Of a stretch of DNA of 64,000 bases, positions 469-50,714 are shown piece after piece. The stretch comes from Candidatus Woesebacteria bacterium GW2011_GWA1_39_21 (GTDB taxonomy: Bacteria > Patescibacteriota > Microgenomatia > UBA8517), in the NCBI GenBank assembly GCA_000993685.1, contig LBWP01000002.1:7993-71992 (forward strand), given 5' to 3'. Numbering within the stretch: position 1 is the first letter of the stretch; each line of letters starts with the position of its first letter. The notes beneath the pieces were generated by a model. It saw only the letters and a program-made list of their open reading frames with translations, did no database searches and was not told where the DNA came from. The translations under genes and the position numbers were made by a program.

Positions 469-744
469 ATCTAAGATTTTCTAGTTGTTTTTTGAAATAG
501 GTTCCAACATAGTCAACCAGGCACTGCAGCAGGTCGATGGGCCGGTTTGAGGAGTAAATCATAGGGCTTTTGGTACGTCCACACGAGCTTTTTTGATGTA
601 ACAACAAGTTTCAACTGACTTTTACAACTGCTTTTCGTTTGGTTTCCAAATCATCGCTGTTTAACGTTTCCCGAGCTTGGTGGGCGGTAGTAAAGTAGTC
701 CTCTGAAAATTCTAACCAAGTGCATTGACTGGTGTAATCCATCG

Positions 745-2289
745 TCAGTCTTCTCTTTCGACTTTCCAAATGACCACTTGCTGATTTTTGAAAACTTCTT
801 TAATACTTCGGTAACTAGGCTTATCAAGTCTGGGGAACTGACTCCAAAGTTCGCTTTCGTTTTTCCAGACAACAAAATCGATATTATTTGAGTTTAAAAA
901 CGATCTGGCTTCATTCTCGCTCATTTTATTGTTGAAGAAACTTGTTAATTCTGCAATTTTTTCGACGGAGTTTGGGGTTTGGAAATAATGACCAAAATAA
1001 ACACTATTTCCGCTTATGGCCGGTATGTAGTTTGAAAAGGGATATGTAGCAACAATGTTTTTGGGGTAGTTTTTTTGAAGAAAATCTAATGCCGCCAAAT
1101 CATTTGAGTTCCAGTAGTATGGTGACAACATGTTTTGTACTTTTAGAACCCGATCTAACTGGATGAAAAACGATGTAAAAAAAGATGCTGTCAAAAATAA
1201 AATTGCAATAACCTTTCTAATTCCGTGTGGTAGGCTTTCAAGGAAGGAAGCGGTTAAAAAAGATAACGGAATAAAAATGCCGAGTAGGTAATAGCGTGCG
1301 AAACCAAACGGTAGATATGCCAAGATAATTTGTGAGGAAATCAGAAAGTAAATAAAAAGAAATGAATTATCGGATCTTATTTTCTTTATCTCGGTCACAA
1401 ATGGGATGATAAATATTCCACATCCGAGAAGAAATGAGACAAACACGGGAGTATTTAGAGAGGGGCTTAAAACGCTTTCGAGACCTTTTGCATTTAGGAT
1501 GTATAAAGCATAAGTTCCACCGCAAAGACCAAGAAAGGTAAGGGATAGAATTGTTTTGACCAAATAAGGTAAATATTTATTTTTTAGATAGATGGCTACT
1601 GCGAAAGATAAAACAACAATCGCGTAACTGAGATACAGGTAGGGGTAGATATAACCGGAAAAAAAAAAGAGTAAGGTTGAAAGGGTAATATATTTAAAAC
1701 GCATGGATTTTGTAAATTTGTAAAAAAATGACAGAGATAATATGTACAGACTTAGGGAGAGTGTTGCGTGAGGCCTTTGAAAGACATTAAGAAGCATGAA
1801 TGGTGTTACGGTTAAATCTGCAGAATTTATACCGAAACCATAAACCAACCAACCAAAACCGCCCGCAAAAGCCGCCGTTAATGTTGAGAGTAACGCTGTT
1901 TTGTGTGAAGAAGAAAGCGTTTTGGTGAAATAGTAAATTGAGACAAGGAGAAACGGTACAAATAATAAAGTTGAGATATTGTATAAGATGAAGGGGTTTG
2001 TCGTTCTGAATAACGTTCCAAAAAGCGTATAAATCGGATAGACAATCGTTTTGTTATCACCGGCTTGGGTTGTAAAAAGATTTTTGTATTTGAAGCCGTT
2101 TATCTGTGAATATTTGATGACAGAAACGTAAACATTCACATCCCACGGATCCCAAGTGTAACTATTGCCAGAGTATTTGTGTTGCGTGTCGGATTTTAGA
2201 TAGCCAATGGTGTCGGGGAGAAAAAATAAAAAGGCTATCAACAGTATCACGAGAATTGTTGACAAGTTAATTTTTGAAATAAATCTCAT
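745..2289 (-). CDS. polytopic membrane protein, GT-C-like (ArnT/PMT-type) glycosyltransferase candidate
   Basis: The protein has more than 10 predicted TM helices followed by a soluble C-terminal domain. The track ORF extends to 2505 and would overlap the divergent gene at 2321, so the start was moved to the internal Met of MRFISKINLST (2289). Confidence 0.45.
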   Translation of the reverse strand: MRFISKINLSTILVILLIAFLFFLPDTIGYLKSDTQHKYSGNSYTWDPWDVNVYVSVIKYSQINGFKYKNLFTTQAGDNKTIVYPIYTLFGTLFRTTNPFILYNISTLLFVPFLLVSIYYFTKTLSSSHKTALLSTLTAAFAGGFGWLVYGFGINSADLTVTPFMLLNVFQRPHATLSLSLYILSLSFFYKFTKSMRFKYITLSTLLFFFSGYIYPYLYLSYAIVVLSFAVAIYLKNKYLPYLVKTILSLTFLGLCGGTYALYILNAKGLESVLSPSLNTPVFVSFLLGCGIFIIPFVTEIKKIRSDNSFLFIYFLISSQIILAYLPFGFARYYLLGIFIPLSFLTASFLESLPHGIRKVIAILFLTASFFTSFFIQLDRVLKVQNMLSPYYWNSNDLAALDFLQKNYPKNIVATYPFSNYIPAISGNSVYFGHYFQTPNSVEKIAELTSFFNNKMSENEARSFLNSNNIDFVVWKNESELWSQFPRLDKPSYRSIKEVFKNQQVVIWKVERED

Positions 2290-2320
2290 ACTAGGGAAAT
2301 TATAATGTAAAATACTAAAT

Positions 2321-3910
2321 ATGATAACGTTTGAAGCGTTCAGAAGGTTCAAATCTTTTATCGCGCGTAACCAATTATTCCTTCTTTTTATCCTTACGTA
2401 TTTCACCTTCGTAACATATTTTTTGAGGGGGATTTCGTCACTCGATCCGGATTTTGGCTGGCGCTTGAAATTTGGACAAATGGTTATCGATAGTGGAATT
2501 CCCAAAACTGATCCTTTTTCATATACTATGCCTTCGTTTCCTTTTGTAGATCACTCCTGGCTGTTTAGTGTTTTTGCGGCTTTGACGTATCCGGTTTTCG
2601 CGAATATTCTGCTCTCTCTCTTGTTAGCCTTTGCTATCTTTACGGCCGTTATTTTATCAAACAAGAGATTAAAGGAGAGCGACTTTGGCCACTGCAACCT
2701 CAACTTCCGTTGGGAAAGATGGGTGCACCCAATGACCCTGGCGGTTTTGACATTTCTTTTGTTGTTTTTTGCTGTGAGAGCGCAGATAGTTTCTTGGCTG
2801 ATCTTTTCATTTTTAATGTTAATTCTATTTACAAAGGATTATTACTTTCGCTTTAAATATTTTTTGCCGGTTGTTTTTTTGGTGTGGGCAAATTTCCACG
2901 GCGGCTATTCAATCGGGCTTTTTATTTTGGGGTATTTTCTTGCGTTTAGATATTTAATTAATAAAAAAGGTTCTTGGAAGGATGTGTTGGTTTTGTTTTT
3001 GTGCATTGCCGCTACTTTGGTTACACCTTATGGACTTGCCGGCTGGAGGGAAGTGGCTTCTTCGGTTTTGGACTCAAGGCTGCGTTACACAATTGCGGAG
3101 TGGATGCCGTCGGTGACGTTTTTTGACTTGTCGATGATTTTTTACATTTCGATGTCGACCTTTATGGTTTTTTACAAAAGGCGTGAAATTCCAAAAATCC
3201 AATTTTATCTTTTTTGGGCGCTGTTTATTTTTGCCTTGAGTAGTCGACGCAACATGCCATATTTTATGTTGTATTCACTTCCATTGACGGTTGTTGCGGT
3301 CGAAAAGCTGTATCAGGAGGTTAAAGATAAAAGTGTTGGGAGAGAGCGCTTTTCGATCGCTTTTAATTTTTTAAGAATCTTTGCTGTTATCCTCCTTTTT
3401 GGCCAGCTATATTTTAGTTACTGGAGGGCATATACGCAGAGGGGTGTTCCATCCCGGGGGGGAGGTTTTTACCCCGAGAGCGCTGTTTCCTTCTTAAAAT
3501 CGGAAAATCTTTCCGACGAAACCTTTTCCAGTTATGGGTGGGGTGGTTATCTTATTTGGAAACTGCCCGGTAAGAGAATTTTTGTCGACGGGAGAATGCC
3601 GAGTTGGAAATTTAACCCGGCCGACTCAAGTCGCGAAACAACATCCGCGTACAGTGACTACCTAAATATCGAAAATGGCGAGTTGGACTTCAACTCACAG
3701 GCAAACAAATACTCCATTGGCCATGTCTTATGGCCTGTGGAAAAACCCAGTTTTTTCGGAAGTCTTGGAAAGAAGGCGAGAAAGCTATTTACCACGAGTG
3801 AAAAAGCAGATTTTTCTTTTACAAAATATCTGTTAGAGAACGGTTGGAAAATAATCTACTCGGACGAAACCTCCGTTGTTTACAAAAGGATTGATAAGTC
3901 GACGTGGTAA
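2321..3910 (+). CDS. polytopic membrane protein with C-terminal soluble domain, GT-C-like glycosyltransferase candidate
   Basis: It has multiple TM helices, an early DP/DH loop motif (SLDPDFGW, FVDHSW) and a ~150-aa C-terminal hydrophilic domain. It is divergent to the previous gene. Confidence 0.45.
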   Translation: MITFEAFRRFKSFIARNQLFLLFILTYFTFVTYFLRGISSLDPDFGWRLKFGQMVIDSGIPKTDPFSYTMPSFPFVDHSWLFSVFAALTYPVFANILLSLLLAFAIFTAVILSNKRLKESDFGHCNLNFRWERWVHPMTLAVLTFLLLFFAVRAQIVSWLIFSFLMLILFTKDYYFRFKYFLPVVFLVWANFHGGYSIGLFILGYFLAFRYLINKKGSWKDVLVLFLCIAATLVTPYGLAGWREVASSVLDSRLRYTIAEWMPSVTFFDLSMIFYISMSTFMVFYKRREIPKIQFYLFWALFIFALSSRRNMPYFMLYSLPLTVVAVEKLYQEVKDKSVGRERFSIAFNFLRIFAVILLFGQLYFSYWRAYTQRGVPSRGGGFYPESAVSFLKSENLSDETFSSYGWGGYLIWKLPGKRIFVDGRMPSWKFNPADSSRETTSAYSDYLNIENGELDFNSQANKYSIGHVLWPVEKPSFFGSLGKKARKLFTTSEKADFSFTKYLLENGWKIIYSDETSVVYKRIDKSTW

Positions 3911-3924
3911 CTTATGGGGTATAA

Positions 3925-5706
3925 TTGAAGGCAATGGCGGGAACTGTTGAGGAAATAAAAGCAAAAGCTGATATTGTTCAAATCATATCGGAAAGAATTA
4001 ACGTAAAAAAAGCTGGAAAACATTTTAAGGCACTTTGTCCGTTCCACGGAGAAAAAACACCTTCTTTTATGATTTCACCGGAGTTGCAGATTTATAAATG
4101 CTTTGGCTGTAGTTTGGGTGGTGATGTGATCGACTTTTTGGAAAGGTATGAAGGAATGGATTTTAACGAGGCAGTGGAGTACCTTTCAGAAAGAACGGGA
4201 ATCAAGCTTGAATCGAGTTTTTTTCAACCTAAAAAAGACAGGGAAAAGATTGTTGAAATAAACGAGCTCGCTTCGAAGTACTACCAATATCTTCTCCTTA
4301 AACACAAGCTTGGTAAGGAGGCCCTAGCGTATTTGTTAGAAAAACGTAAATTGACGATTGCGACAATTCAAAAATTCAGAATTGGATATTCGCCGGGCAA
4401 TCAAGAAATTTTCGAATCCTTCTTTATCAAAAAAAAAGGCATCCGAGTTCGCGATTTGGCCATGGCGGGTATTTGTTACGAGAAGTATGGTAAAGCAATT
4501 GATAGGTTTTCAGGAAGAGTTATTTTTCCGCTTTTTGACCATCGTAACAATGTTGTAGGTTTTTCTGGAAGGGTGATGCCGGGCTCCAGCCAAGAACTTG
4601 CCAAATATATCAACACCCCCGAAACGCCTGCGTACCATAAATCCGAGGTCTTGTTTGGGTTGAATTTTACTAAAGAGGAAATCAAAAAGAGTGCTTTTGC
4701 GATAATTACAGAAGGCGAGCTCGATGCAATTTCACCCTGGCAAAGGGGGGTAAAAAACATCGTTGCAATTAAGGGTTCGGCCTTGACCGAAGCGCATGCG
4801 CATCTTCTCTCGCGCTTTACAAAAAATATTACATTGGCACTCGATGCTGATTTTGCCGGAAATGCCGCCGCGAAAAGGGGAATAGAAATTGCCCAACGCC
4901 TGGGTTTAAAAGTAAAAGTAGCAGTGCTTAAGGGTTACAAAGATCCGGACGAAATGGCGCTTGTTGGGATCGAGAAGTTTTCTGACTGCGTCAAGAAAGC
5001 AGTTTCGGTATACGACTTTATTATCGGTTCCGCAATGGAAAAGTATGACAGGCAGACGATTGAGGGAAAGATGGATATTGCAAGGGAGGCAATTCCGTTT
5101 CTGGCGAAGATTGAGGATGAAATTGTTAAAGCGTACTATATTGAGAGTTTGTCGAAGAAACTTGGAGTTCCATACGAATCCGTGTATTCGGAGGTGGAAA
5201 AAAACAGAATTTCAAAAATTGGAAAACAGGACGAGAAGCGTATCGACGATCCCGTTGCTAGAAAAAGAAGAGATAGAGTGGAAGAGATGTTTTTGGTTTT
5301 ACTTTTGCTTGAGCAGCCAGAAAAAGTAAAAGAGTATGCGCTCTATTTCAAGTCGACCTTCATTTCTAAGGTTGTTGACACGCTTGGAGTTTTTCTGAAG
5401 AAAAAAGTCTTTGATATCCGAGGTTTTGTCCAGAATCTGCCGGATGAGCTTAAAGATAAGTTTAATGATATTTACCTAATCAACAGTTCCGAATTTGATA
5501 ATCTTACTTCGTTGGAGGTGAAAAAGGAAATTGAGTTGTTGAGAAAGACGCTTGAGCTAATTACTATTTCGGAAAAGCAGAATGAGATTATAGAACGAAT
5601 CAAAAAAAGTGAGAAAAATAAAGACAAAGACGACGTTAAAAAATATCAGAAACAGTTAAACGATTTAGTGAAAACGAAACTGAGACTTGAAGGTAAGGCA
5701 AGCTAG
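3925..5706 (+). CDS. dnaG: DNA primase
   Basis: A CHC2 zinc finger (CPFHGEKTPSF...CFGCSLGGD) is present. The TOPRIM region (ITEGELDAIS, ALDADFAGN) is present. The gene sits upstream of rpoD in the macromolecular-synthesis arrangement. Confidence 0.9.
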   Translation: MKAMAGTVEEIKAKADIVQIISERINVKKAGKHFKALCPFHGEKTPSFMISPELQIYKCFGCSLGGDVIDFLERYEGMDFNEAVEYLSERTGIKLESSFFQPKKDREKIVEINELASKYYQYLLLKHKLGKEALAYLLEKRKLTIATIQKFRIGYSPGNQEIFESFFIKKKGIRVRDLAMAGICYEKYGKAIDRFSGRVIFPLFDHRNNVVGFSGRVMPGSSQELAKYINTPETPAYHKSEVLFGLNFTKEEIKKSAFAIITEGELDAISPWQRGVKNIVAIKGSALTEAHAHLLSRFTKNITLALDADFAGNAAAKRGIEIAQRLGLKVKVAVLKGYKDPDEMALVGIEKFSDCVKKAVSVYDFIIGSAMEKYDRQTIEGKMDIAREAIPFLAKIEDEIVKAYYIESLSKKLGVPYESVYSEVEKNRISKIGKQDEKRIDDPVARKRRDRVEEMFLVLLLLEQPEKVKEYALYFKSTFISKVVDTLGVFLKKKVFDIRGFVQNLPDELKDKFNDIYLINSSEFDNLTSLEVKKEIELLRKTLELITISEKQNEIIERIKKSEKNKDKDDVKKYQKQLNDLVKTKLRLEGKAS

Positions 5707-5741
5707 AAATTATTATTAATTGAATAATAGAGTATTTTGAG

Positions 5742-13656: not shown

Positions 13657-13750
13657 TAAAACCACGGCATTTATGCCGTGAATGAGCAAATTTTCGCGAT
13701 GAACGAAGTTAACCGCAGGCGACAAAATACCACGGGCTTTAGCCCGTGGA
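13657..13750. repeat. dispersed hairpin-repeat element (AAAACC-hairpin-ATGA ... aatacca-hairpin)
   Basis: Sequence aaaaccacggcatttatgccgtgaatga is followed by cgacaaaataccacgggctttagcccgtgg. It is near-identical in architecture and partly in sequence to 49537-49618. Confidence 0.6.
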
Positions 13751-40090: not shown

Positions 40091-40363
40091 ATGAAAGCCA
40101 TTAAACAGTTTGTTGAGGAATTAGTAAAGAATAAGGAGAGAGTACTTAAAAGAGAAATTTCAGATATGGAGGCACGGGTTATTCTGGCTGAAAGCGGGAA
40201 ATTTCCTGAGATGAATGAAGAGCTAAGACTAAGAGCAATAGCTTCGAGCGCCGAACATAGGAACAAAGGAACGCTTTTGGGAAGACAAAAATATATTTTA
40301 GATGGAGAAAAGCAGTTAAGGGCAATTATTTTGGGAAAAGAAAGAGATCGAGAGGGGGATTAA
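40091..40363 (+). CDS. hypothetical small protein
   Basis: The ORF encodes a charged alpha-helical protein. I recognise no family. Confidence 0.3.
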   Translation: MKAIKQFVEELVKNKERVLKREISDMEARVILAESGKFPEMNEELRLRAIASSAEHRNKGTLLGRQKYILDGEKQLRAIILGKERDREGD

Positions 40364-40971: not shown

Positions 40972-42027
40972 ATGAAAAAACGAATATTATCAGGAATTAG
41001 AGCCACCGGCAGGCTTCATTTGGGAAATTATCTTGGAATGATTAAAGGAATGCTTACTCTTCAAGATGATCCCGAGTATGAAGTTTTCTTCATGGTCGCA
41101 GATTTGCACGCACTAACGACTCCGTTTGATCCGAAAACGTTGGGACCAAACTCCAGAGACGTTGTTTTGGACTATCTTGGCGCAGGTCTTGATCCGGAAA
41201 AAGCGTCGGTTTTTATCCAATCGCACGTTCGAGAACACGTCGAACTTTCCTATCTGTTTTCGACTGAAGTGACAATTGCGAGGTTGGGTCACTTACCAAC
41301 CTACAAAGACAAGCTTAAACAGTTTCCGGAAAATAATACCTTGGCGCTTTTGTACTACCCGGTTTTAATGGCTGCAGATATTTTGCTTTATAAAACGGAA
41401 CTTCTTCCGGTCGGGGATGACCAGCTGCCACATCTTGAGATCTCTCGCGAAATTGCAAGAAAGTTTAATGAAAAATACGGGATGGATTTCCCGGAGCCGG
41501 GACAAATTAAAACAGAAGGACATTACGTTCCATCGCTAACGGGAGAAGGAAAGATGAGTAAGTCGGTAGAAGGGAGTTACATTAATCTGACTGACGATTT
41601 GACGACAATTAAGGAAAAGTTGGCAATAGTTCCGACAGACTCTGGAAAAGGTAAAATCGAAACTCAAAACTCAAATGTCAAAAGTCAAAATGACAACTCA
41701 AAACTCAAAATTTATAAATCTGGAGGAATCGAGTCGAAGGGGATATCTGCATTAATGGCACTGGTAGACTTATTTGAAGGTGAAGAAAAAAGAAAAGAAT
41801 ATGAAGAGAAATATTTGGGAGAGGGTGTTCGGTACGGTAATTTGAAAAATGAACTAGCTGAAGAAATTTATAAAGAACTTGAGCCGATTCAAGCGCGAAG
41901 GAAAAAGTACGAAGACGATCCGGATTTGGTAGAGAAAATCTTAAAAGACGGTGCCGAAAAAGCTCGAAAAATCGCCAAGGAAACAGCCAGAAGATTTGGA
42001 AGGAAAACAGCTTCCTTTTGTTATTAA
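40972..42027 (+). CDS. trpS: tryptophanyl-tRNA synthetase
   Basis: The HIGH motif reads GRLHLGNY. KMSKS is present. It carries an in-frame insertion KIETQNSNVKSQNDNSKLKIY encoded by a repeat also found in the polA-like gene. Confidence 0.9.
   Translation: MKKRILSGIRATGRLHLGNYLGMIKGMLTLQDDPEYEVFFMVADLHALTTPFDPKTLGPNSRDVVLDYLGAGLDPEKASVFIQSHVREHVELSYLFSTEVTIARLGHLPTYKDKLKQFPENNTLALLYYPVLMAADILLYKTELLPVGDDQLPHLEISREIARKFNEKYGMDFPEPGQIKTEGHYVPSLTGEGKMSKSVEGSYINLTDDLTTIKEKLAIVPTDSGKGKIETQNSNVKSQNDNSKLKIYKSGGIESKGISALMALVDLFEGEEKRKEYEEKYLGEGVRYGNLKNELAEEIYKELEPIQARRKKYEDDPDLVEKILKDGAEKARKIAKETARRFGRKTASFCY
41662..41712 (+). repeat. in-frame ~51 nt repeat copy A (inside trpS)
   Basis: Sequence aactcaaaactcaaatgtcaaaagtcaaaatgacaactcaaaactcaaaatt shares 33 nt of exact identity with 46201-46252. 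It contains the tgtca/tgaca inverted repeat. Confidence 0.8.
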
Positions 42028-42416
42028 TCTGGAAAAAAAGAAAATCGGCCTGGAGGGTGATCATTCTGAAGGGATGATGTTAATGGCTGTGGCGTCAAAA
42101 AAGGAAATGGGGCAGGATCCGGTAAAGGTTGGCGAGGAAGAAGTTGACGAGTATCCAATTTTGTTCGACCTTCCCGAGAAAGTTTCAAACGGAACAAGAG
42201 TAATGTAGGGAATTTGAGTTTACGCGTAAGAGGAAGGAAGTGGAAAATTTCTTTGTATTCTCCATACTTATACTTCCTACAACAACGAATTCTTACATGT
42301 TATAATTCAGCTTGTTTACAGGGAGACTTGTTACTTTACGTAAACGGGTGGAAGTGTTTTGTGGTAAGATAACTGCTACTTCTGTCTCAGGCAGAGATTA
42401 GGTTTCCAAAAATATT

Positions 42417-44354
42417 ATGTTACCGGTTAAATTCAAACTTGTAAAAATCAAAAGTCCCAAAGATCTTGAAAAATTGGTAAAAAGGGATCAAAAACAAGAT
42501 TTGCAAAAAGGGAAGGAAAAAGGTAAAGATGGAAAAAAGAAGGTTGAACTGAAGGTCAAGATTAATCTTTGGAAAGTTCTCATTGTAATCGTTCTCTTTA
42601 TATTTTTCGCCCCGTTTCTTTTTTCTGTTTTTGAAGTTGCAAACTCCAGTCAAAAAGAAGATATCTCGCAGGTACTAACAGACATTAAGGACCACAAAGT
42701 TAAAGAGGTTGTTGTCGAAGGGTCGAAACTCGTTTTGACTTATCAGGATGGCACGATTAAGACGGCTACAAAAGAACCTGCGGAAAGTTTTGCCGAGCTT
42801 TTAAAAAGCGAAGATATCAAACCCTCCGATGTTAAATATAGTGTTGTCGACCAATCGCTATCCCAGACCTTGGGAAGTATTTTAGGGATAGTCCTTCCGA
42901 TTGTCATTACAGGAGTGATCTTTTTCGCCATCCTTCGAGCGCAGAACCGAAGTGCACAAGATATTTTTTCCTTTGGTAGAAGTAAGGCCAAGCTGTTTTC
43001 AAAAGGTAAACAGGATGTAACTTTTGCCGACGTTGCTGGAGTAGACGATGCTAAAAAAGAATTGGAAGAAATTGTCGACTTTCTGAAAAACCCGGCGAAG
43101 TATCGAAAAATTGGCGCGCGTACACCCAAGGGAGTATTGCTTTTTGGCCCGGCGGGAGTTGGTAAAACATTATTGGCAAGAGCTGTTGCCGGACAAGCTG
43201 GAGTACCCTTCTTCTCAATGGCAGGGAGTGAATTTATGGAAATGCTTGTCGGAGTTGGGGCCTCGAGAGTGCGCGATCTGTTCGCTACCGCAAAGGCGCA
43301 GTCTCCCTCCATTATTTTTATAGATGAAGTAGATGCCATCGGACGACAGAGGGGTCGCGGTTTTATTGGTGGACATGACGAAAGAGAGCAAACCTTGAAC
43401 CAGATACTTGTAGAAATGGATGGCTTTACTCCAAATGACAACGTTGTAGTTATTGCTGCGACTAATCGCGGAGATCTTTTAGATCCGGCTCTTTTAAGAC
43501 CTGGTCGCTTTGACAGAAGGGTAATGCTTGACATGCCTGACAAAGATGGGCGTTTGGCTATTTTAAAAATTCACGCCAAAGGTAAAAAATTTGTTAATAA
43601 GATCGACTGGGAAAAAATTGCCGATTCAACCGTCGGTTTTTCCGGAGCAGATCTTGAGAACATGTTAAACGAAGCGGCGATTCTGGCCGCCCGTGATGAC
43701 AAGGAAGCAATTGAGCAGAAAGATATCGATGAAGCCGCAACTAAGGTTAAACTGGGTCCTGCGAAAAAGAGAATGCAATCTGAGGAAGATAAAAAAATTA
43801 CAGCCTATCATGAGGCTGGTCATGCTATCGTCACGCACTTTCAGGCCCATATGGATCCGGTACAAAGAATTTCGATTGTCGCAAGAGGGATGAGTCTTGG
43901 TCACACGCTGATTCCACCGGCTGCTGATCGTACGCACGAGACAAAAACTAGGATTCAGGAACAGGTCGCGGCGATGTTGGGAGGAAGAGCGGCTGAGGAA
44001 GTGGTCTTTAATGAAATGACTTCTGGGGCAAGTAACGATATCGAACAAGCCACCCGGCTTGCCCGAGCAATGGTGGTTGAATTTGGAATGAGCCCACTTG
44101 GCCCGATCAATTTAGGTCCACAGTACGATTCTGACGAAATGGGTAAGGCAATGTATTATGAACCAGCAAATATTTCTCCGGCAATGCTGGAAAAAGTGGA
44201 TGCAGAAATTAAAAAAGTAATGGATGCAGCTTATAAAGAAGCAGTGGTATTGGTTAAGAAAAATAAAACGAAACTGGACAAAGTGGCTGCGGAACTTCTC
44301 AAAACAGAAACCCTTGATCGAGAACAGTTTGAAAAGATTGTTGGGAAGAAATAA
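42417..44354 (+). CDS. ftsH: ATP-dependent zinc metalloprotease FtsH
   Basis: A TM helix is present. The AAA Walker A is GPAGVGKT. Walker B is IIFIDEVDAIG, with SRH downstream. The zinc site HEAGHAIV is present. Confidence 0.9.
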   Translation: MLPVKFKLVKIKSPKDLEKLVKRDQKQDLQKGKEKGKDGKKKVELKVKINLWKVLIVIVLFIFFAPFLFSVFEVANSSQKEDISQVLTDIKDHKVKEVVVEGSKLVLTYQDGTIKTATKEPAESFAELLKSEDIKPSDVKYSVVDQSLSQTLGSILGIVLPIVITGVIFFAILRAQNRSAQDIFSFGRSKAKLFSKGKQDVTFADVAGVDDAKKELEEIVDFLKNPAKYRKIGARTPKGVLLFGPAGVGKTLLARAVAGQAGVPFFSMAGSEFMEMLVGVGASRVRDLFATAKAQSPSIIFIDEVDAIGRQRGRGFIGGHDEREQTLNQILVEMDGFTPNDNVVVIAATNRGDLLDPALLRPGRFDRRVMLDMPDKDGRLAILKIHAKGKKFVNKIDWEKIADSTVGFSGADLENMLNEAAILAARDDKEAIEQKDIDEAATKVKLGPAKKRMQSEEDKKITAYHEAGHAIVTHFQAHMDPVQRISIVARGMSLGHTLIPPAADRTHETKTRIQEQVAAMLGGRAAEEVVFNEMTSGASNDIEQATRLARAMVVEFGMSPLGPINLGPQYDSDEMGKAMYYEPANISPAMLEKVDAEIKKVMDAAYKEAVVLVKKNKTKLDKVAAELLKTETLDREQFEKIVGKK

Positions 44355-44378
44355 CAGGAGGTAAGACAGCGTAGACAA

Positions 44379-44975
44379 CTACCAAGCGGTTCGTTTTTGT
44401 TTCAGATTTCTCATCAACCCGGCAGCGTAGCCTCCGGGAACAGTTGTGGTTTCTTTGATTCCCAATACTTTCAGAAAATCCAGAATTTTTTGATAACTTT
44501 TTTTAACACCGCCTTTGTTTTTAATAGATTCGACTTCGATGAAATACCCAAGATTTTTAACCTCGTCCAGCGCAATTTCAAACTCATTTTTATTGTAAAT
44601 TGTTCTTTTTTTGTCGACTGTCACAAAATTTTCAAAATTCAGAGCTTTGAGAATGTTTTCTATCTGCTCTTTGTTTGCAACTTCTGTTTCGTACTCGTGA
44701 CAGTGGGTCGTGTTTTTAACGCCTTCCGGATACCAATGTTTGAAGTTAAGTGTTACTTTTCCGTCGCGCTGCCGAACCGCCAACCATTTGTAAGGATATT
44801 TTGGCTTTAAAAAACTCTTATCAACCGGATTATAGTAAGCGTCGATGTGGTGAGAAGTTTTTATTTTTTTGGCAATTTTGGAGAGCTGCTTTTCAATTTT
44901 ATCGAACCTCGTTTTTGTCAGCTTAATTTTTATTTCTACTTCAACATTGTCATTAGCCATTAGCGTATTATACAC
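44379..44975 (-). CDS. CYTH-domain protein (class IV adenylyl cyclase / triphosphate tunnel metalloenzyme family)
   Basis: The N-terminal motif is VEVEIKIKL. Later tunnel motifs are present (HCHEYETEV, EFEIALDEV, YFIEVESI). Confidence 0.55.
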   Translation of the reverse strand: MYNTLMANDNVEVEIKIKLTKTRFDKIEKQLSKIAKKIKTSHHIDAYYNPVDKSFLKPKYPYKWLAVRQRDGKVTLNFKHWYPEGVKNTTHCHEYETEVANKEQIENILKALNFENFVTVDKKRTIYNKNEFEIALDEVKNLGYFIEVESIKNKGGVKKSYQKILDFLKVLGIKETTTVPGGYAAGLMRNLKQKRTAW

Positions 44976-45038
44976 ATTATGACTTGCACTCGTGGGGTTT
45001 GGACATCAAAGATTGTTGAAAAAAAATGACAAAAATAT

Positions 45039-45623
45039 TCAGTCAGGGATTGCAATTGTTTTTTTATAGGGATTTAACTTGTCTTCTCGTGTCGGTTTAT
45101 AACCTTCTGGTAAATTGCGTTTTCTTGCTTCCAACAACTCTTCCACTTGTCTTCTCAACTCTTTGTAAGTTGGGCTGTTTCGCAACGGTCGAAAACCGAA
45201 AGTGAAGCGTGGAATCTTCTTTAAGTATTCAAGTTGTCCCTCAAGTGCCCCAATTTCTGCGGTGTCCAAATTATGTGGTGGTACGCCTCCTATCTCTTTT
45301 GGTGACAAACCGCTTCTCAACGCATGGATGAATTGTTCGATATGGAAAAACTCGTGTACAGCGAGACTTTCGTTGCCGCCGTGTTCAATAAAAGGCACTG
45401 ACGTATTTTTAGTACCGTCAGTGTGTATTTCTGTAAATCCGAAAGGGGTGTCTCGTTCGATAATATTTATGCCACAACCCCGAAATTTTTCGGCCATCTC
45501 TCTGATTTTCAAAGGAGAGAGGTGTTCTCTCTTGATGATTTCTGAAATTAATGGCGCATTGGAATAAAGTTCTTTATCTGATTTGTTGAAATGGGAGGAA
45601 TCTACTTCAATGTTGTTTTCCAT
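45039..45623 (-). CDS. hypothetical protein with HExxH motif
   Basis: The only recognisable feature is HEFFHIEQF, a zincin-like HExxH...E arrangement. Confidence 0.3.
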   Translation of the reverse strand: MENNIEVDSSHFNKSDKELYSNAPLISEIIKREHLSPLKIREMAEKFRGCGINIIERDTPFGFTEIHTDGTKNTSVPFIEHGGNESLAVHEFFHIEQFIHALRSGLSPKEIGGVPPHNLDTAEIGALEGQLEYLKKIPRFTFGFRPLRNSPTYKELRRQVEELLEARKRNLPEGYKPTREDKLNPYKKTIAIPD

Positions 45624-45844
45624 TTAATAATAAGTGTAACAAAGTCTTCGAGCTGAATATATATTGGGTTGAACAATATTCAGAAATTCTTCAGCAGCTT
45701 GATTAGATGTGGTCATTTCACCTGTCATTTGGGTTATTGTATATTACAGGGATTTTTTCGGGTAAAATACAGAAGTGGAGTAAAAGAACAAGAGGGTGAA
45801 AGAGTAAAAATATATGAGCGGAAATGTAAATGGAGGTGTAGAAA

Positions 45845-47260
45845 ATGTCTAAACTTATACTTATAGATGGGAATGCGATTATGCATCGGGCGTATCACGC
45901 ACTGCCTCCGCTGACGACAAAATCCGGCGAGCCGATTAATGCTGTTTACGGTTTTATCTCGATGCTTTTGGGGATAATAGCTGATATGAAACCGACGCAT
46001 CTTGCAGTATGTTTTGACAGACCCGAAAAAACTTTTCGCAGGGAAAAATATATCCACTACCAAGCCCAGCGGCCGGAAATGGATGATTTATTGGTTACTC
46101 AAATAACCAAAATGCACGGTGTTTTGCAAGCTTTTAAAATTCCTGTTTATGAAAAAGCCGGATATGAGGCGGATGATTTGCTTGGCACAATTGCCAAGCA
46201 AACTCAAAACTCAAATGTCAAAAGTCAAAATGAAAAATCAAAACTTAAAATTGATGAAACAGTGATTGTAACTGGAGATAGGGATATCTTTCAGTTGATT
46301 ACTAAAAAAGTCAAAGTATATTTCCCGATAAAAGGAATTAAGGAAGGAAAATTATACGGCGTTTCTGACGTCAAACACGAATTTGATTTTGAGCCGATTA
46401 AAATGATTGACTACAAATCTCTGGTGGGGGATTCTTCAGATAATTACCCCGGAGTTACCGGAATAGGTCCAAAAACGGCGATTGGTTTACTGAACAAATT
46501 TCAAACAAAACAAAACATTTATAAACACCTTGAAGACATTCCGGAAAAAACCAGGACAAAATTAGAGCAGGGAAAAGATATGGCAGACATGTCGTACGAC
46601 CTGGCGACAATCCGCACAAATGTTCCAGTTGAGGTAGACATCAAAAAAATGGGCGATTGGGATTTGGGGAGCATGGAGGCAATAAGGCTTTTTATGAGTT
46701 ATGGTTTTAGAACCTTGCTTGGAAGAATTACAAACGGGAACGAAGTGGCGAAAGTTGCAGCCTTAAAAAAAGACCTGAAGAAAAGAGACGTTGAAGAAGT
46801 AGCAATTGTTTTGGCTAAAAAATTAAAAAATGGTCAATTTGCAATACGCGGAACAGCAAATATGGTTTTGCAAGGTCTGGATATGGGTGTAGCCGATATT
46901 GATTTAATTGCAGATAAAGATACCGCGCTTTCGATGAATAAAATATTTAATAAAGAGCTATTGGAAGAGGTGAAGTTTTCAGAAGCGGACAAGTTCAGAT
47001 CGTACTTCGGAAAGTTTGTTATAAAAGGCGTTTTGGTAGAGATGATGGGAGAATTTCAAGTCAAAGATAAAAATGGTGTGTGGAGCGAAAAATTGGACGC
47101 TTCGGAGGATGAAGTCGTTGAAATAAAAATTGCTGGAAATAAAGTAAAAGTTACGAGACTGGATTTAGAAATGAAATTTTCAGCAATGATGGGCCGCTTC
47201 AACGAGTTAAATAAAATTAAGAAACAGGTTGACTTGAAGCTACAGGGAAGCTTGTTTTAA
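45845..47260 (+). CDS. standalone PolI-type 5'-3' exonuclease (FEN) fused to C-terminal nucleotidyltransferase-like domain
   Basis: The N-terminus is MSKLILIDGNAIMHRAYHALPPL...VYGFISML. H3TH is GDSSDNYPGVTGIGPKTA. The C-terminal ~180 aa carries GTANMVLQGLDMGVADIDLI (G[ST]x9-13D.D, pol-beta NTase-like). It carries the in-frame repeat insertion TQNSNVKSQNEKSKLKID. Confidence 0.8.
   Translation: MSKLILIDGNAIMHRAYHALPPLTTKSGEPINAVYGFISMLLGIIADMKPTHLAVCFDRPEKTFRREKYIHYQAQRPEMDDLLVTQITKMHGVLQAFKIPVYEKAGYEADDLLGTIAKQTQNSNVKSQNEKSKLKIDETVIVTGDRDIFQLITKKVKVYFPIKGIKEGKLYGVSDVKHEFDFEPIKMIDYKSLVGDSSDNYPGVTGIGPKTAIGLLNKFQTKQNIYKHLEDIPEKTRTKLEQGKDMADMSYDLATIRTNVPVEVDIKKMGDWDLGSMEAIRLFMSYGFRTLLGRITNGNEVAKVAALKKDLKKRDVEEVAIVLAKKLKNGQFAIRGTANMVLQGLDMGVADIDLIADKDTALSMNKIFNKELLEEVKFSEADKFRSYFGKFVIKGVLVEMMGEFQVKDKNGVWSEKLDASEDEVVEIKIAGNKVKVTRLDLEMKFSAMMGRFNELNKIKKQVDLKLQGSLF
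46201..46252 (+). repeat. in-frame ~51 nt repeat copy B (inside 5'-3' exonuclease gene)
   Basis: Sequence aactcaaaactcaaatgtcaaaagtcaaaatgaaaaatcaaaacttaaaatt sits at the position where canonical FEN domains have a short loop. Confidence 0.8.
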
Positions 47261-49451: not shown

Positions 49452-49536
49452 CTTTGCTTGGCATTGCCGACGGGCCAACGCTGACGCGTAAGCGCTACGA
49501 GTAGATCCACTTGCTAAAAATTATTGAATTCATCTG

Positions 49537-49618
49537 CGAAAACCACGGACTTTAGTCCGTGGATGAAGCAAGAATCCAATCTCGTCGACAAAATACCATG
49601 GGCTTTAGCCCGTGGTAG
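49537..49618. repeat. dispersed hairpin-repeat element overlapping recF start
   Basis: Sequence aaaaccacggactttagtccgtggATGAagc is followed by cgacaaaataccatgggctttagcccgtgg. It parallels 13657-13750. The first in-frame ATG of recF is the ATG of the ATGA motif. Confidence 0.6.
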
Positions 49619-50714
49619 TAATTTTACTCAGAAGTCGATATCTTTTTCAAAAGATGTCACTCTAATTTTGGGAAACAATGCTTCAGGAAAAACCAATATC
49701 TTGGAAGCGATTGTGTTTTTATCGACAGGGAAAAGTTTTAAGGCCAGGTTGGAGTCGGAAGTGATTACCTATCAAAAGGATGTATCGCGGATTAAAGGTA
49801 AAATCGACTCAGGAATCAATTTAGAGATTGTTATTACGAATGGTTCAGTAAGAGTAGGTGACAGTCCGTCCAGTCTAAAAAAAGCACAGCGTAAGAAGCT
49901 TTTGGTAAACGGTGTAGCGCGCCGACTGCTTGATTTTGCGGGAAATTTAAAGGTTGTAATTTTCGGACCTTGGGATATGGATTTGGTGACAGCTTCGCCT
50001 TCAGTTAGACGAAAATTTTTAGATTCCGTACTTGCCCAAGTGGATAGGGAATACCGCAGATCGTCTTTGATTTACGACAGGGGTATGCGACAAAGAAACA
50101 GACTCCTTTTGCGGATTCGCGATGAAGGGTTGTCTGCGTCACAACTGTTGTACTGGGATAAGCTTTTGATTAAGCACGGAAACTATATAACAAAACGGCG
50201 CGGTGATTTTATTGATTTTGTCAACGGCAGCAAAAGTGGTGGAACAAACTTATTATTGAATGACATTCAAAATGGAGAGAAAATGAATTTTTCTCTAGCC
50301 GGCAACTACCAACTGGAATACGACAGAAGCGAAATCTCCATTGGAAGATTAAAGCAATATGAACGAGAAGAGGTTGCCGCGGCAACAACTCTTGTCGGTC
50401 CGCACCGTGACGATTTTCTATTTAAGATTGGATTGCAAAAGACGAAGTTTGGCGACAGCGACCGCGACCTTGCGAAATACGGAAGCAGGGGAGAACAAAG
50501 AATGGGTATACTTTGGTTAAAGTTGGCCGAACTGTCTTTTATCAAACAACAAACGAACGAAAAACCACTGCTTTTGCTAGACGATATTTTTTCTGAACTG
50601 GACCACGAACACCGAAAAATTGTAACAGCTGTTTGTGAACAGCAGCAAACAATTGTAACAACAGCCGACCCGCATTACATTGAAGCTACGAAAGCAAAAG
50701 TAATTAGATTGTAA
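49563..50714 (+). CDS. recF: DNA replication/repair protein RecF
   Basis: Walker A is GNNASGKTNILEAI. The SMC-like signature and Walker B (LLLLDDIFSELD) are present. The start was chosen at ATG 49563; the track gives a TTG at 49524. Confidence 0.85.
   Translation: MKQESNLVDKIPWALARGSNFTQKSISFSKDVTLILGNNASGKTNILEAIVFLSTGKSFKARLESEVITYQKDVSRIKGKIDSGINLEIVITNGSVRVGDSPSSLKKAQRKKLLVNGVARRLLDFAGNLKVVIFGPWDMDLVTASPSVRRKFLDSVLAQVDREYRRSSLIYDRGMRQRNRLLLRIRDEGLSASQLLYWDKLLIKHGNYITKRRGDFIDFVNGSKSGGTNLLLNDIQNGEKMNFSLAGNYQLEYDRSEISIGRLKQYEREEVAAATTLVGPHRDDFLFKIGLQKTKFGDSDRDLAKYGSRGEQRMGILWLKLAELSFIKQQTNEKPLLLLDDIFSELDHEHRKIVTAVCEQQQTIVTTADPHYIEATKAKVIRL

Follow-up and report, generated by a model that had tools for sequence, protein, structure and literature searches.

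The DNA considered here is a stretch of 64,000 nucleotides (nt), called the window in the following, from contig LBWP01000002.1 of Candidatus Woesebacteria bacterium GW2011_GWA1_39_21. The host is an uncultivated groundwater bacterium. In the window one short A-rich element occurs twice, each time inside a protein gene and in the reading frame of that gene. Both invaded genes are essential and they are mutually unrelated: one encodes tryptophanyl-tRNA synthetase (TrpS), the other a 5'-3' exonuclease of the DNA polymerase I (Pol I) type. In other genomes, relatives of the element often form the A-rich half of an inverted repeat. This half is here called the A-arm, its T-rich complement the T-arm, and some of these repeats flank small genes for four-helix-bundle (4HB) proteins. 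The features of interest are the following.

40972..42027, + strand: host gene 1, tryptophanyl-tRNA synthetase TrpS, 351 amino acids (aa); Pfam tRNA-synt_1b at 198.6 bits, alignments with orthologs and with structures of the Protein Data Bank (PDB).
41660..41718, + strand: copy A of the element, probably a solo A-rich arm, in frame in TrpS, with its 34-nt core at 41660-41693; nhmmer E=6.7e-11 with the arm profile, E=1.5e-4 with the profile of 4HB 5' ends.
45845..47260, + strand: host gene 2, a stand-alone Pol I-type 5'-3' exonuclease/FEN, 471 aa; Pfam 5_3_exonuc_N and 5_3_exonuc.
46200..46258, + strand: copy B of the element, probably likewise a solo A-rich arm, in frame in the exonuclease, with its 34-nt core at 46200-46233; nhmmer E=9.9e-11 with the arm profile, E=1.5e-4 with the profile of 4HB 5' ends.

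The core, AAACTCAAAACTCAAATGTCAAAAGTCAAAATGA, is exactly the same in both copies and is found by string search in the window at these two places only, both on the + strand; zero matches are expected from 100 dinucleotide-preserving shuffles. The original prediction, made from the letters of the window, had counted 33 identical nt. The exact run exists, its true length being 34 nt. In all, 59 nt can be aligned with 92% identity (41660-41718 against 46200-46258), and the copies, 51-59 nt long, lie 4,540 nt apart on one strand. Each begins at codon position 2 of its host open reading frame (ORF). The resulting peptides are E230-TQNSNVKSQNDNSKLKIY-K249 in TrpS and Q119-TQNSNVKSQNEKSKLKID-E138 in the exonuclease. 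A nucleotide-level repeat that sits in the same codon phase in two unrelated essential genes had been claimed, and this is what is found. The sequence is A-rich and displays a clear 7-nt period, NTCAAAA. Searches of both strands with blastn-short, tblastn and two nhmmer profiles revealed no third copy in the window.

The element had also been called palindromic. This term has to be abandoned for the window copies: they consist of one arm, find no partner arm in the window and fold no better than shuffled sequences (minimum free energy of the RNA -2.9 kcal/mol, z -0.66, for copy A and -1.6 kcal/mol, z +0.80, for copy B). The inverted repeat tgtca/tgaca, which had been ascribed to the element as such, is a property of copy A alone, tgaaa standing in copy B. 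Three independent assemblies of the same species, from JGI and ENA, cover both sites, and all three have both copies. The TrpS copy is also seen in three further assemblies whose DNA does not reach the exonuclease site.

In TrpS, whose best named relatives assign the organism to Candidatus Woesebacteria, the element lies some 35 residues downstream of KMSKS. Most Woesebacteria orthologs are 327-328 aa long and lack the segment; the closest named one reads GKGK-ET-LKE-GGVASLL at this site. A minority has a variable beta-hairpin there, and the length of the loop is hypervariable among the orthologs. Aligned with solved TrpS structures, 6dfu among them, the element falls on a gap of about 11-13 residues within the segment TDS...VRYD...GVSNLL. 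An AlphaFold2 model of the window TrpS (mean predicted local distance difference test, pLDDT, 87.6; predicted template modelling score, pTM, 0.86) displays a hairpin with strands 228-231 and 246-250, the tip of which, residues 232-245, is the element peptide. The pLDDT falls below 50 at residues 235-242, inside this peptide. According to the model, the element peptide would be an exposed, predicted disordered loop.

The situation in the exonuclease is similar. Copy B ends 6 residues before VTGDRD, and Pfam 5_3_exonuc_N needs residues 3-180 to cover 163 model positions. Aligned with Pol I of M. smegmatis (6vde) and with Taq polymerase (1bgx), the element is a 12-residue gap between a helix and the strand that bears the metal-binding aspartates of TGDRD/TADKD. 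This loop, too, is hypervariable, as judged from 120 aligned orthologs. The nearest full-length relative, the exonuclease of locus L203 (64% identity), has exactly 27 nt fewer at the element site. Alignment with orthologs and mapping onto structures had been proposed as checks of the surface-loop placement of both copies; the gaps in orthologs and structures bear it out, each copy lengthening a surface loop by 12-13 residues with respect to the structures. An exonuclease from another sample, P0121 (93% identical), was considered as a clean empty site and rejected. It lacks 32 residues, which comprise the element together with the catalytic VTGDRD, and its product is probably inactive; the repeat region may have mediated the deletion, or the assembly may be at fault.

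Both host genes have peculiarities of their own. The exonuclease carries a C-terminal extension of about 170 aa (46745-47257, residues ~300-471) without Pfam match; it is present in part of the orthologs, many of which are 300-335 aa long, and two have precomputed PF10706 matches. At its element loop (46199-46260), the orthologs P0128, P0131, P0147, P0156 and P0233 of other Woesebacteria contain quite different inserts. These resemble translated GC-rich hairpin repeats (e.g., VRVKPACRQAGSEK, STLQLLHPSTL, PALPFSRSSTL), and it seems that several repeat families have used the loop as a common place of insertion. As to TrpS, the gene order DivIC ... TrpS - tRNA_bind - FtsH - exonuclease is shared, and a different, canonical-type TrpS (TDSGSEIKYDPKEKPGISNLL) occupies the syntenic position in L198 (6462-7469), L200 (6799-7800) and L203 (3414-4397). 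The PTDSGKG type is that of the window, L001 and L205. This distribution suggests that the synthetase gene has been replaced in place among Woesebacteria.

The element is not confined to one species. The TrpS of locus L001, syntenic and 65% identical to that of the window at the protein level (pairwise), has CAAAACTCAAATCTCAAAAGTCAAAATGACAAGTCAAAA at the same place, and 49 of 54 nt of its element agree with the window element. The exonuclease of L001 has a short unrelated loop without element. The exonucleases of L202 and L198 (59-67% aa identity to that of the window) contain the element at the same codon, 82-89% identical. In L198 the exonuclease stands beside a different type of TrpS; L202 is a contig of 2.4 kb without TrpS.

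How the element is conserved in these distant orthologs was judged by counting differing codons at identical residues in the element and in the rest of the gene and comparing them by Fisher's test. Outside the element, 49-61% of such codons differ. Inside it, 0/11 differ between the exonucleases of the window and L202 (p=1.3e-4), 1/10 between those of the window and L198 (p=0.016), 1/8 between those of L202 and L198 (p=0.037), and 0/12 between TrpS of the window and of L001 (p=2.2e-5). The result stands when the count is limited to codons for K, N, Q, S and V. The original prediction had envisaged that orthologs might have the peptide without any nucleotide-level signature; they have it with frozen synonymous sites. 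It is thus the nucleotide sequence of the element, beyond what the peptide requires, and not the peptide that is conserved. The freeze speaks for recent copying, for gene conversion or for a constraint on the nucleotides. Of all pairs of elements, copies A and B within the one genome are the most similar (93%). Copy A is as close to the exonuclease copy of L202 as copy B is, and the copies are therefore not clustered by locus.

Nor is the element confined to these two genes. A 20-nt anchor chosen from the shared core retrieved 68 loci from metagenome contigs and at least 120 loci from GTDB species representatives; an exact 24-mer scan of the GTDB genomes gave 0 matches. Among the matches listed, the combined scans yield 175 unique sites, ~134 of them intergenic and some in frame within genes, and most records are labelled Patescibacteria, also known as the Candidate Phyla Radiation (CPR): Saccharibacteria, Paceibacterota and others. 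The possibility that the repeat occurs nowhere else, also envisaged at the outset, is thereby removed. The consensus of the arm comprises about 50 nt, AAaTCAAAAaTCAAATATCAAAAATCAAAATGACAAatcAAAATttAAAAat, with the 7-nt period, and its flanks are conserved beyond the anchor though the search pattern does not force them to be. Further CPR labels are Moran-, Magasanik-, Falkow-, Portnoy-, Taylor-, Kuenen-, Nealson-, Berkel- and Kerfeldbacteria. Long contigs with arms are also labelled Nitrospirae, Chlamydiae, Sedimentisphaerales, Prolixibacteraceae and others. Matches in Pelagibacteraceae from GTDB were discarded as chance matches in one conserved orthologous gene. Phages were considered as vectors and dismissed: 9 matches fell on viral contigs, and only 2 of these resemble family members.

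At about half of the intergenic sites, a complementary T-rich arm follows 40-150 nt downstream, and long AT-rich hairpins result. The order is A then T in 14 pairs detected by profile; the reverse order occurs in 0. The A-arm of one such hairpin, in L022, is identical to copy A in 48 of 56 nt. The neighbouring genes, where both are called (97 sites), are co-oriented in 70 cases, divergent in 21 and convergent in 6. Since convergent placements are rare (6/97), a role of the hairpins as terminators is disfavoured and was not retained. A look by eye for promoters at the arms revealed several -35-like hexamers with poor spacing, and an Rfam scan of ten hairpin loci returned tRNAs only and no repeat family.

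The proteins that harbour the element elsewhere were collected from DNA scans only. Verified by Pfam and in frame are Hsp70/DnaK (in the C-terminal tail), a PD-(D/E)XK nuclease, PolX (in the thumb), GatB, a POR/IorA-like protein, LeuRS, SecF, SecA, ValRS and MnmA, ten families in all. Element-type sequence is found in about 12 unrelated proteins and at more than 100 intergenic sites. The ValRS element has no counterpart in the T. thermophilus structure, where a gap of 12 residues falls on the turn of a beta-hairpin; for MnmA the gap in a solved structure amounts to 6 residues. The coding frame of arms inside ORFs invariably yields N-x-K-x-Q-N-D/E. A second sense frame is open in 9 of 15 such arms, yet it is never used. 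Of 59 intergenic arms, 32 are open in the used frame, 12 in the alternative one and 7 in the antisense one. In two metagenome contigs, L031 and L060, the anchor runs the other way within a gene for a multi-pass membrane protein. The T-rich strand is there read as ...FFAGFILTFDIFIIG..., within a hydrophobic stretch; either the match is due to chance or a transmembrane segment tolerates a T-arm as part of itself.

The only specific recurrent neighbour of the arms is the 4HB gene. Transposase, reverse transcriptase and integrase do not recur within 1.5 kb of them. The 4HB genes match TIGR02436 with 83.6 and 82.1 bits (cutoff 24) and abut arms in 9-10 loci. Where they do, the T-arm invariably starts 3-15 nt past the 4HB stop codon, and the 5' end of the gene itself looks like an A-arm, e.g., ...AAAAATCAAAATGGAAAATGACAATG...AAATTCAAAAATGAA. 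For six genes the start had been picked correctly, and their two ends form a duplex of -24 to -41 kcal/mol, compared with -14 to -18 for shuffles; a seventh gene, in L190, had a mis-picked start, and its duplex score is uninformative. A profile was built from eight 4HB 5' ends only, which had not been selected by the anchor. At its top stand the two window copies and nothing else, each with E=1.5e-4; the match after them has E=1.6. It aligns ATG-GAA-AAT-GAC-AAT of the gene with AGT-CAA-AAT-GAC-AAC of the window in one shared reading frame.

Intermediates between complete cassettes and bare hairpins exist. In L144, L096 and L182, both arms are present together with the first 9-25 and the last ~26 codons of the 4HB gene; L101 and many more have no 4HB sequence left. 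Deletion derivatives fold with -47 to -60 kcal/mol. The 4HB cassettes examined directly follow protein-coding genes and do not lie within a 23S rRNA gene. Other 4HB subfamilies in these loci have their own, different flanking inverted repeats. The contig L096, from Nealsonbacteria, harbours three 4HB-family ORFs of different subfamilies within 5 kb (680-5728): one is a deletion remnant between arms, another has inverted repeats of its own, CCAATTTTCA / TGAAAATTGG. Several cassette lineages appear to coexist in this one genome.

We think it reasonably probable that copies A and B are solo A-rich arms, about 50-57 nt long, of a dispersed inverted-repeat family that stems from 4HB cassettes. A complete member consists of inverted repeats that bracket a small 4HB gene of the TIGR02436 type. 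Its A-arm comprises the leader of the 4HB gene, the start codon and the first ~12 codons (M-E/Q-N-D-x-x-K-F-K). With the complementary T-arm after the stop codon, the ends can pair into a long stem, which is the layout of the intervening sequences (IVSs) of 23S rRNA. Internal deletion leaves the gene-less hairpins seen between genes in CPR and some other uncultivated bacteria. In the window, the A-arm alone would be read in the frame of the 4HB N-terminus as a polar peptide rich in Q, N, S and K, which would extend a beta-hairpin turn in TrpS and, in the exonuclease, the loop before the strand with the metal-binding aspartates. The data establish the identity of the repeat, its codon phase, the insertion as compared with orthologs and solved structures, the exposed loop of low confidence, the membership of the family with its link to the 4HB cassette, and a conservation of nucleotides that exceeds the needs of the peptide. 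Beyond this, the copies are presumably translated, tolerated and near-neutral passengers. They may owe their likeness to the consensus to recent copying or gene conversion from other copies in the genome and not to selection of the peptide; entry or refreshment might be achieved by recombination or template switching at A-rich loop codons and not by cut-and-paste transposition.

One can go further, yet the following joint proposition must be called doubtful. The family of 4HB cassettes, whose proteins are related to Avd and the IVS proteins, occurs in several phyla and is devoid of a transposase; it would spread by an undescribed mechanism and would copy its 5' arm, with the reading frame kept, to loops encoded by essential genes for translation, replication and secretion across CPR, and the embedded arms may act there. 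As part of this proposition, the frozen arms could be docking sites for T-arm RNAs, with control of the host mRNA by an RNase III-type mechanism, or they could be recombination anchors by which the element persists.

A number of points weigh against the derivation of the two copies from such cassettes. Neither T-arm nor hairpin nor 4HB gene is found in the 64-kb window or in ~190 kb of same-species or syntenic Woesebacteria loci; no source copy has thus been seen in this genome. The sample of the family scans is anchored on the window's own sequence, and the scores of the 4HB profile contain a composition bias of about 17 bits, caused by A-richness and the 7-nt period. The arms of one and the same hairpin are hardly better partners than arms of different copies (complementarity 30.2/40 against 29.8/40, p=0.12), and copy-specific compensatory pairing, which had been considered, was given up. 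The loci revealed neither a target-site duplication nor a transposase nor a clean, recent empty site. The borders of the element are A/T-rich, and close relatives offer no filled/empty pair from which target duplications could be read. The exonuclease of L203, with its 27 nt fewer, retains element-like flanks, QSQT...NKSTINE, and is not a clean empty site. Translation of the element peptide is assumed. Finally, the same codon position in orthologs at ~35-40% divergence fits one old insertion. Such an insertion in turn needs gene conversion or nucleotide-level selection to account for the frozen synonymous sites.

This last point leads to the main rival, an old, vertically inherited loop module under its own nucleotide- or peptide-level constraint. 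Selection would act either on a function of the peptide or on a cis-acting site in mRNA or DNA, for instance a target for pairing with T-arm RNA and cleavage by RNase III; the likeness to the intergenic arms would then mean shared function, not copying. The codon position that orthologs share at 59-67% identity is in favour of this idea, the frozen synonymous sites are what a nucleotide-level function predicts, and the peptide extends a hairpin or loop in a similar manner each time. The element is dispensable, however, because the closest relatives (TrpS P0002-P0006, exonucleases P0123-P0126) are without it or have it in decayed form. Moreover, the old module leaves unexplained that the sequence is met in about 12 unrelated proteins and at more than 100 intergenic sites, the window has no complementary T-arm for the RNA to come from, and the peptide is predicted to be disordered. 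We consider the old module unlikely.

The other explanations fare worse. The two copies, lying 4,540 nt apart on one strand, with an identical 34-nt core and as the most similar pair known, could suggest a purely local event, in which one was templated from the other by ectopic gene conversion or break repair and no repeat family is involved. Yet each site is independently occupied elsewhere, TrpS alone in L001 and the exonuclease in L198 and L202, and hundreds of related arms exist; we therefore regard a merely local origin as very unlikely, although local conversion may be the source of the identical core. Convergent growth of low-complexity sequence, by AT-biased mutation and slippage of 7-nt units into look-alike loops rich in K, N, Q and S, would explain the clear period NTCAAAA, the strong bias in composition and the hypervariable length of both loops. 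It is hardly credible in view of the 34-nt identity, which spans the non-periodic core AAATGTCAAAAGTCAAAATGA and has no expected chance match, of a specific 50-nt consensus common to the arms of 4HB cassettes including the ATGAC start region, and of identical codons at synonymous sites in distant orthologs. That an error of assembly or binning, a chimeric low-complexity join, created the copies is practically negligible: the assembly is imperfect, as three indels against a contig of ~100% identity reveal, but independent assemblies from JGI and ENA, made from different samples, again have both copies in frame, and variants of the element are found in orthologs from further datasets.

The contig in question is L004, and the three indels deserve a brief description. 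At 41984/41985 the window is without 263 nt that are present in L004. By this deletion TrpS loses its last 13 codons, the spacer disappears and the next gene downstream, for a tRNA-binding domain, is deprived of its first ~60 codons; TrpS ends with ...ETARRFGRKTASFCY in the window and with ...ETLKEVKEKMGFIG in L004, and the tRNA_bind ORF of the window is shortened to 85 aa. This could be a real strain variant or a mis-assembly. At 40155-40217 the window has 63 extra in-frame nt within a small unannotated ORF (40091..40363). With AAGAG at each end, the segment looks like an indel that arose by slippage between short direct repeats. Another small family of repeats, CGACAAAATACCAYGGGCTTTAGCCCGTGG with the GC-rich hairpin CCACGGGCTTTAGCCCGTGG, has copies at 13720, 49533 and 49586 (13720-13749; 49533-49625). 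Directly after the last of these, 83 nt of L004 are missing in the window, including the start codon of a gene for an SMC/RecF-like protein.

Which known systems does the element resemble? The closest in behaviour are the Rickettsia palindromic elements (RPEs), as the original prediction suggested. In the summary of Ogata et al. 2000/2002 given by PMC10969869, they are described as full palindromes of ~100-150 bp in ten families specific to Rickettsia, dispersed between genes and in frame in unrelated housekeeping genes, where they encode a conserved peptide. Common to both are short dispersed repeats, intergenic as well as in frame in unrelated housekeeping genes including aminoacyl-tRNA synthetases, with a conserved peptide at fold-compatible positions and without an associated transposase. 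The palindromic nature and the size do not agree. The window copies have ~55 nt instead of up to ~150 bp, are one arm of a palindrome and are unstructured alone, by which they are set apart from the RPEs as there described; and the arm family lives in CPR/Patescibacteria and a few other phyla and derives from the ends of gene cassettes. By analogy, the relation to RPEs would be one of in-frame, dispersed behaviour only, not of membership.

In its complete form the family resembles the 23S rRNA IVSs. That of Coxiella has a 28-bp terminal-repeat stem around an S23p ORF, is excised by RNase III and is considered selfish and horizontally acquired (PMC4990558). Full members of our family, like the IVSs of Coxiella and Leptospira, have inverted repeats at their ends, which pair into a long stem and enclose an ORF of the TIGR02436/PF05635 type. 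The IVSs, however, reside in helices 25/45 of 23S rRNA and are cut by RNase III, whereas these cassettes stand between protein genes; and the window copies are solo arms inside ORFs without stem or 4HB ORF, where excision would destroy the mRNA. Miniature inverted-repeat transposable elements and repetitive extragenic palindromes share with the family the gene-less hairpins of inverted arms, several per genome, that are internal deletions of a gene-carrying element. They differ in that the parent element here codes for no recognisable transposase and that the arm extends into the first codons of the cargo gene.

Diversity-generating retroelements (DGRs) are common in CPR. They, too, rewrite short in-frame segments of target genes. 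The cargo of our cassettes belongs to the same four-helix-bundle superfamily as the DGR protein Avd, which is PF05635-like (PMC10053308), and the family was first found in 23S rRNA IVSs and is related to Avd (PMC4990558, PMC10053308). In contrast to DGRs, neither a reverse transcriptase nor a pair of template and variable repeats recurs near the arms, the adenines of the element are conserved and not mutagenised, and the targets are housekeeping enzymes instead of proteins with a C-type-lectin fold.

AT-rich genomes such as that of Plasmodium contain low-complexity inserts rich in N and K, which arise in place by slippage and differ between sites. Like these, the inserts considered here are polar, rich in N, K and Q, probably disordered and placed in surface loops of conserved enzymes; here, however, one specific sequence of ~50 nt is common to different sites and genomes.

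The original prediction knew of no such case in this kind of genome, and a full-text search, in which journals are partly covered, revealed no description of the arm family or of in-frame repeats in CPR genes. To our knowledge, Rickettsia is the only well-known precedent for selfish repeats in frame in working genes, and the phenomenon has been treated as its peculiarity. If the derivation from 4HB cassettes is true, CPR would provide a second, unrelated case, which would suggest that in-frame invasion is generally to be expected where genomes are small, AT-leaning and gene-dense. It would also explain some of the unexplained loop insertions of CPR housekeeping proteins, and the arm profile could be used to flag spurious ORFs and repeat-derived inserts in the annotation of metagenomes. 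Last but not least, the widespread 4HB/23S IVS family, which has been without a function, would gain a genomic life-style: that of an inverted-repeat cassette with hairpin derivatives.

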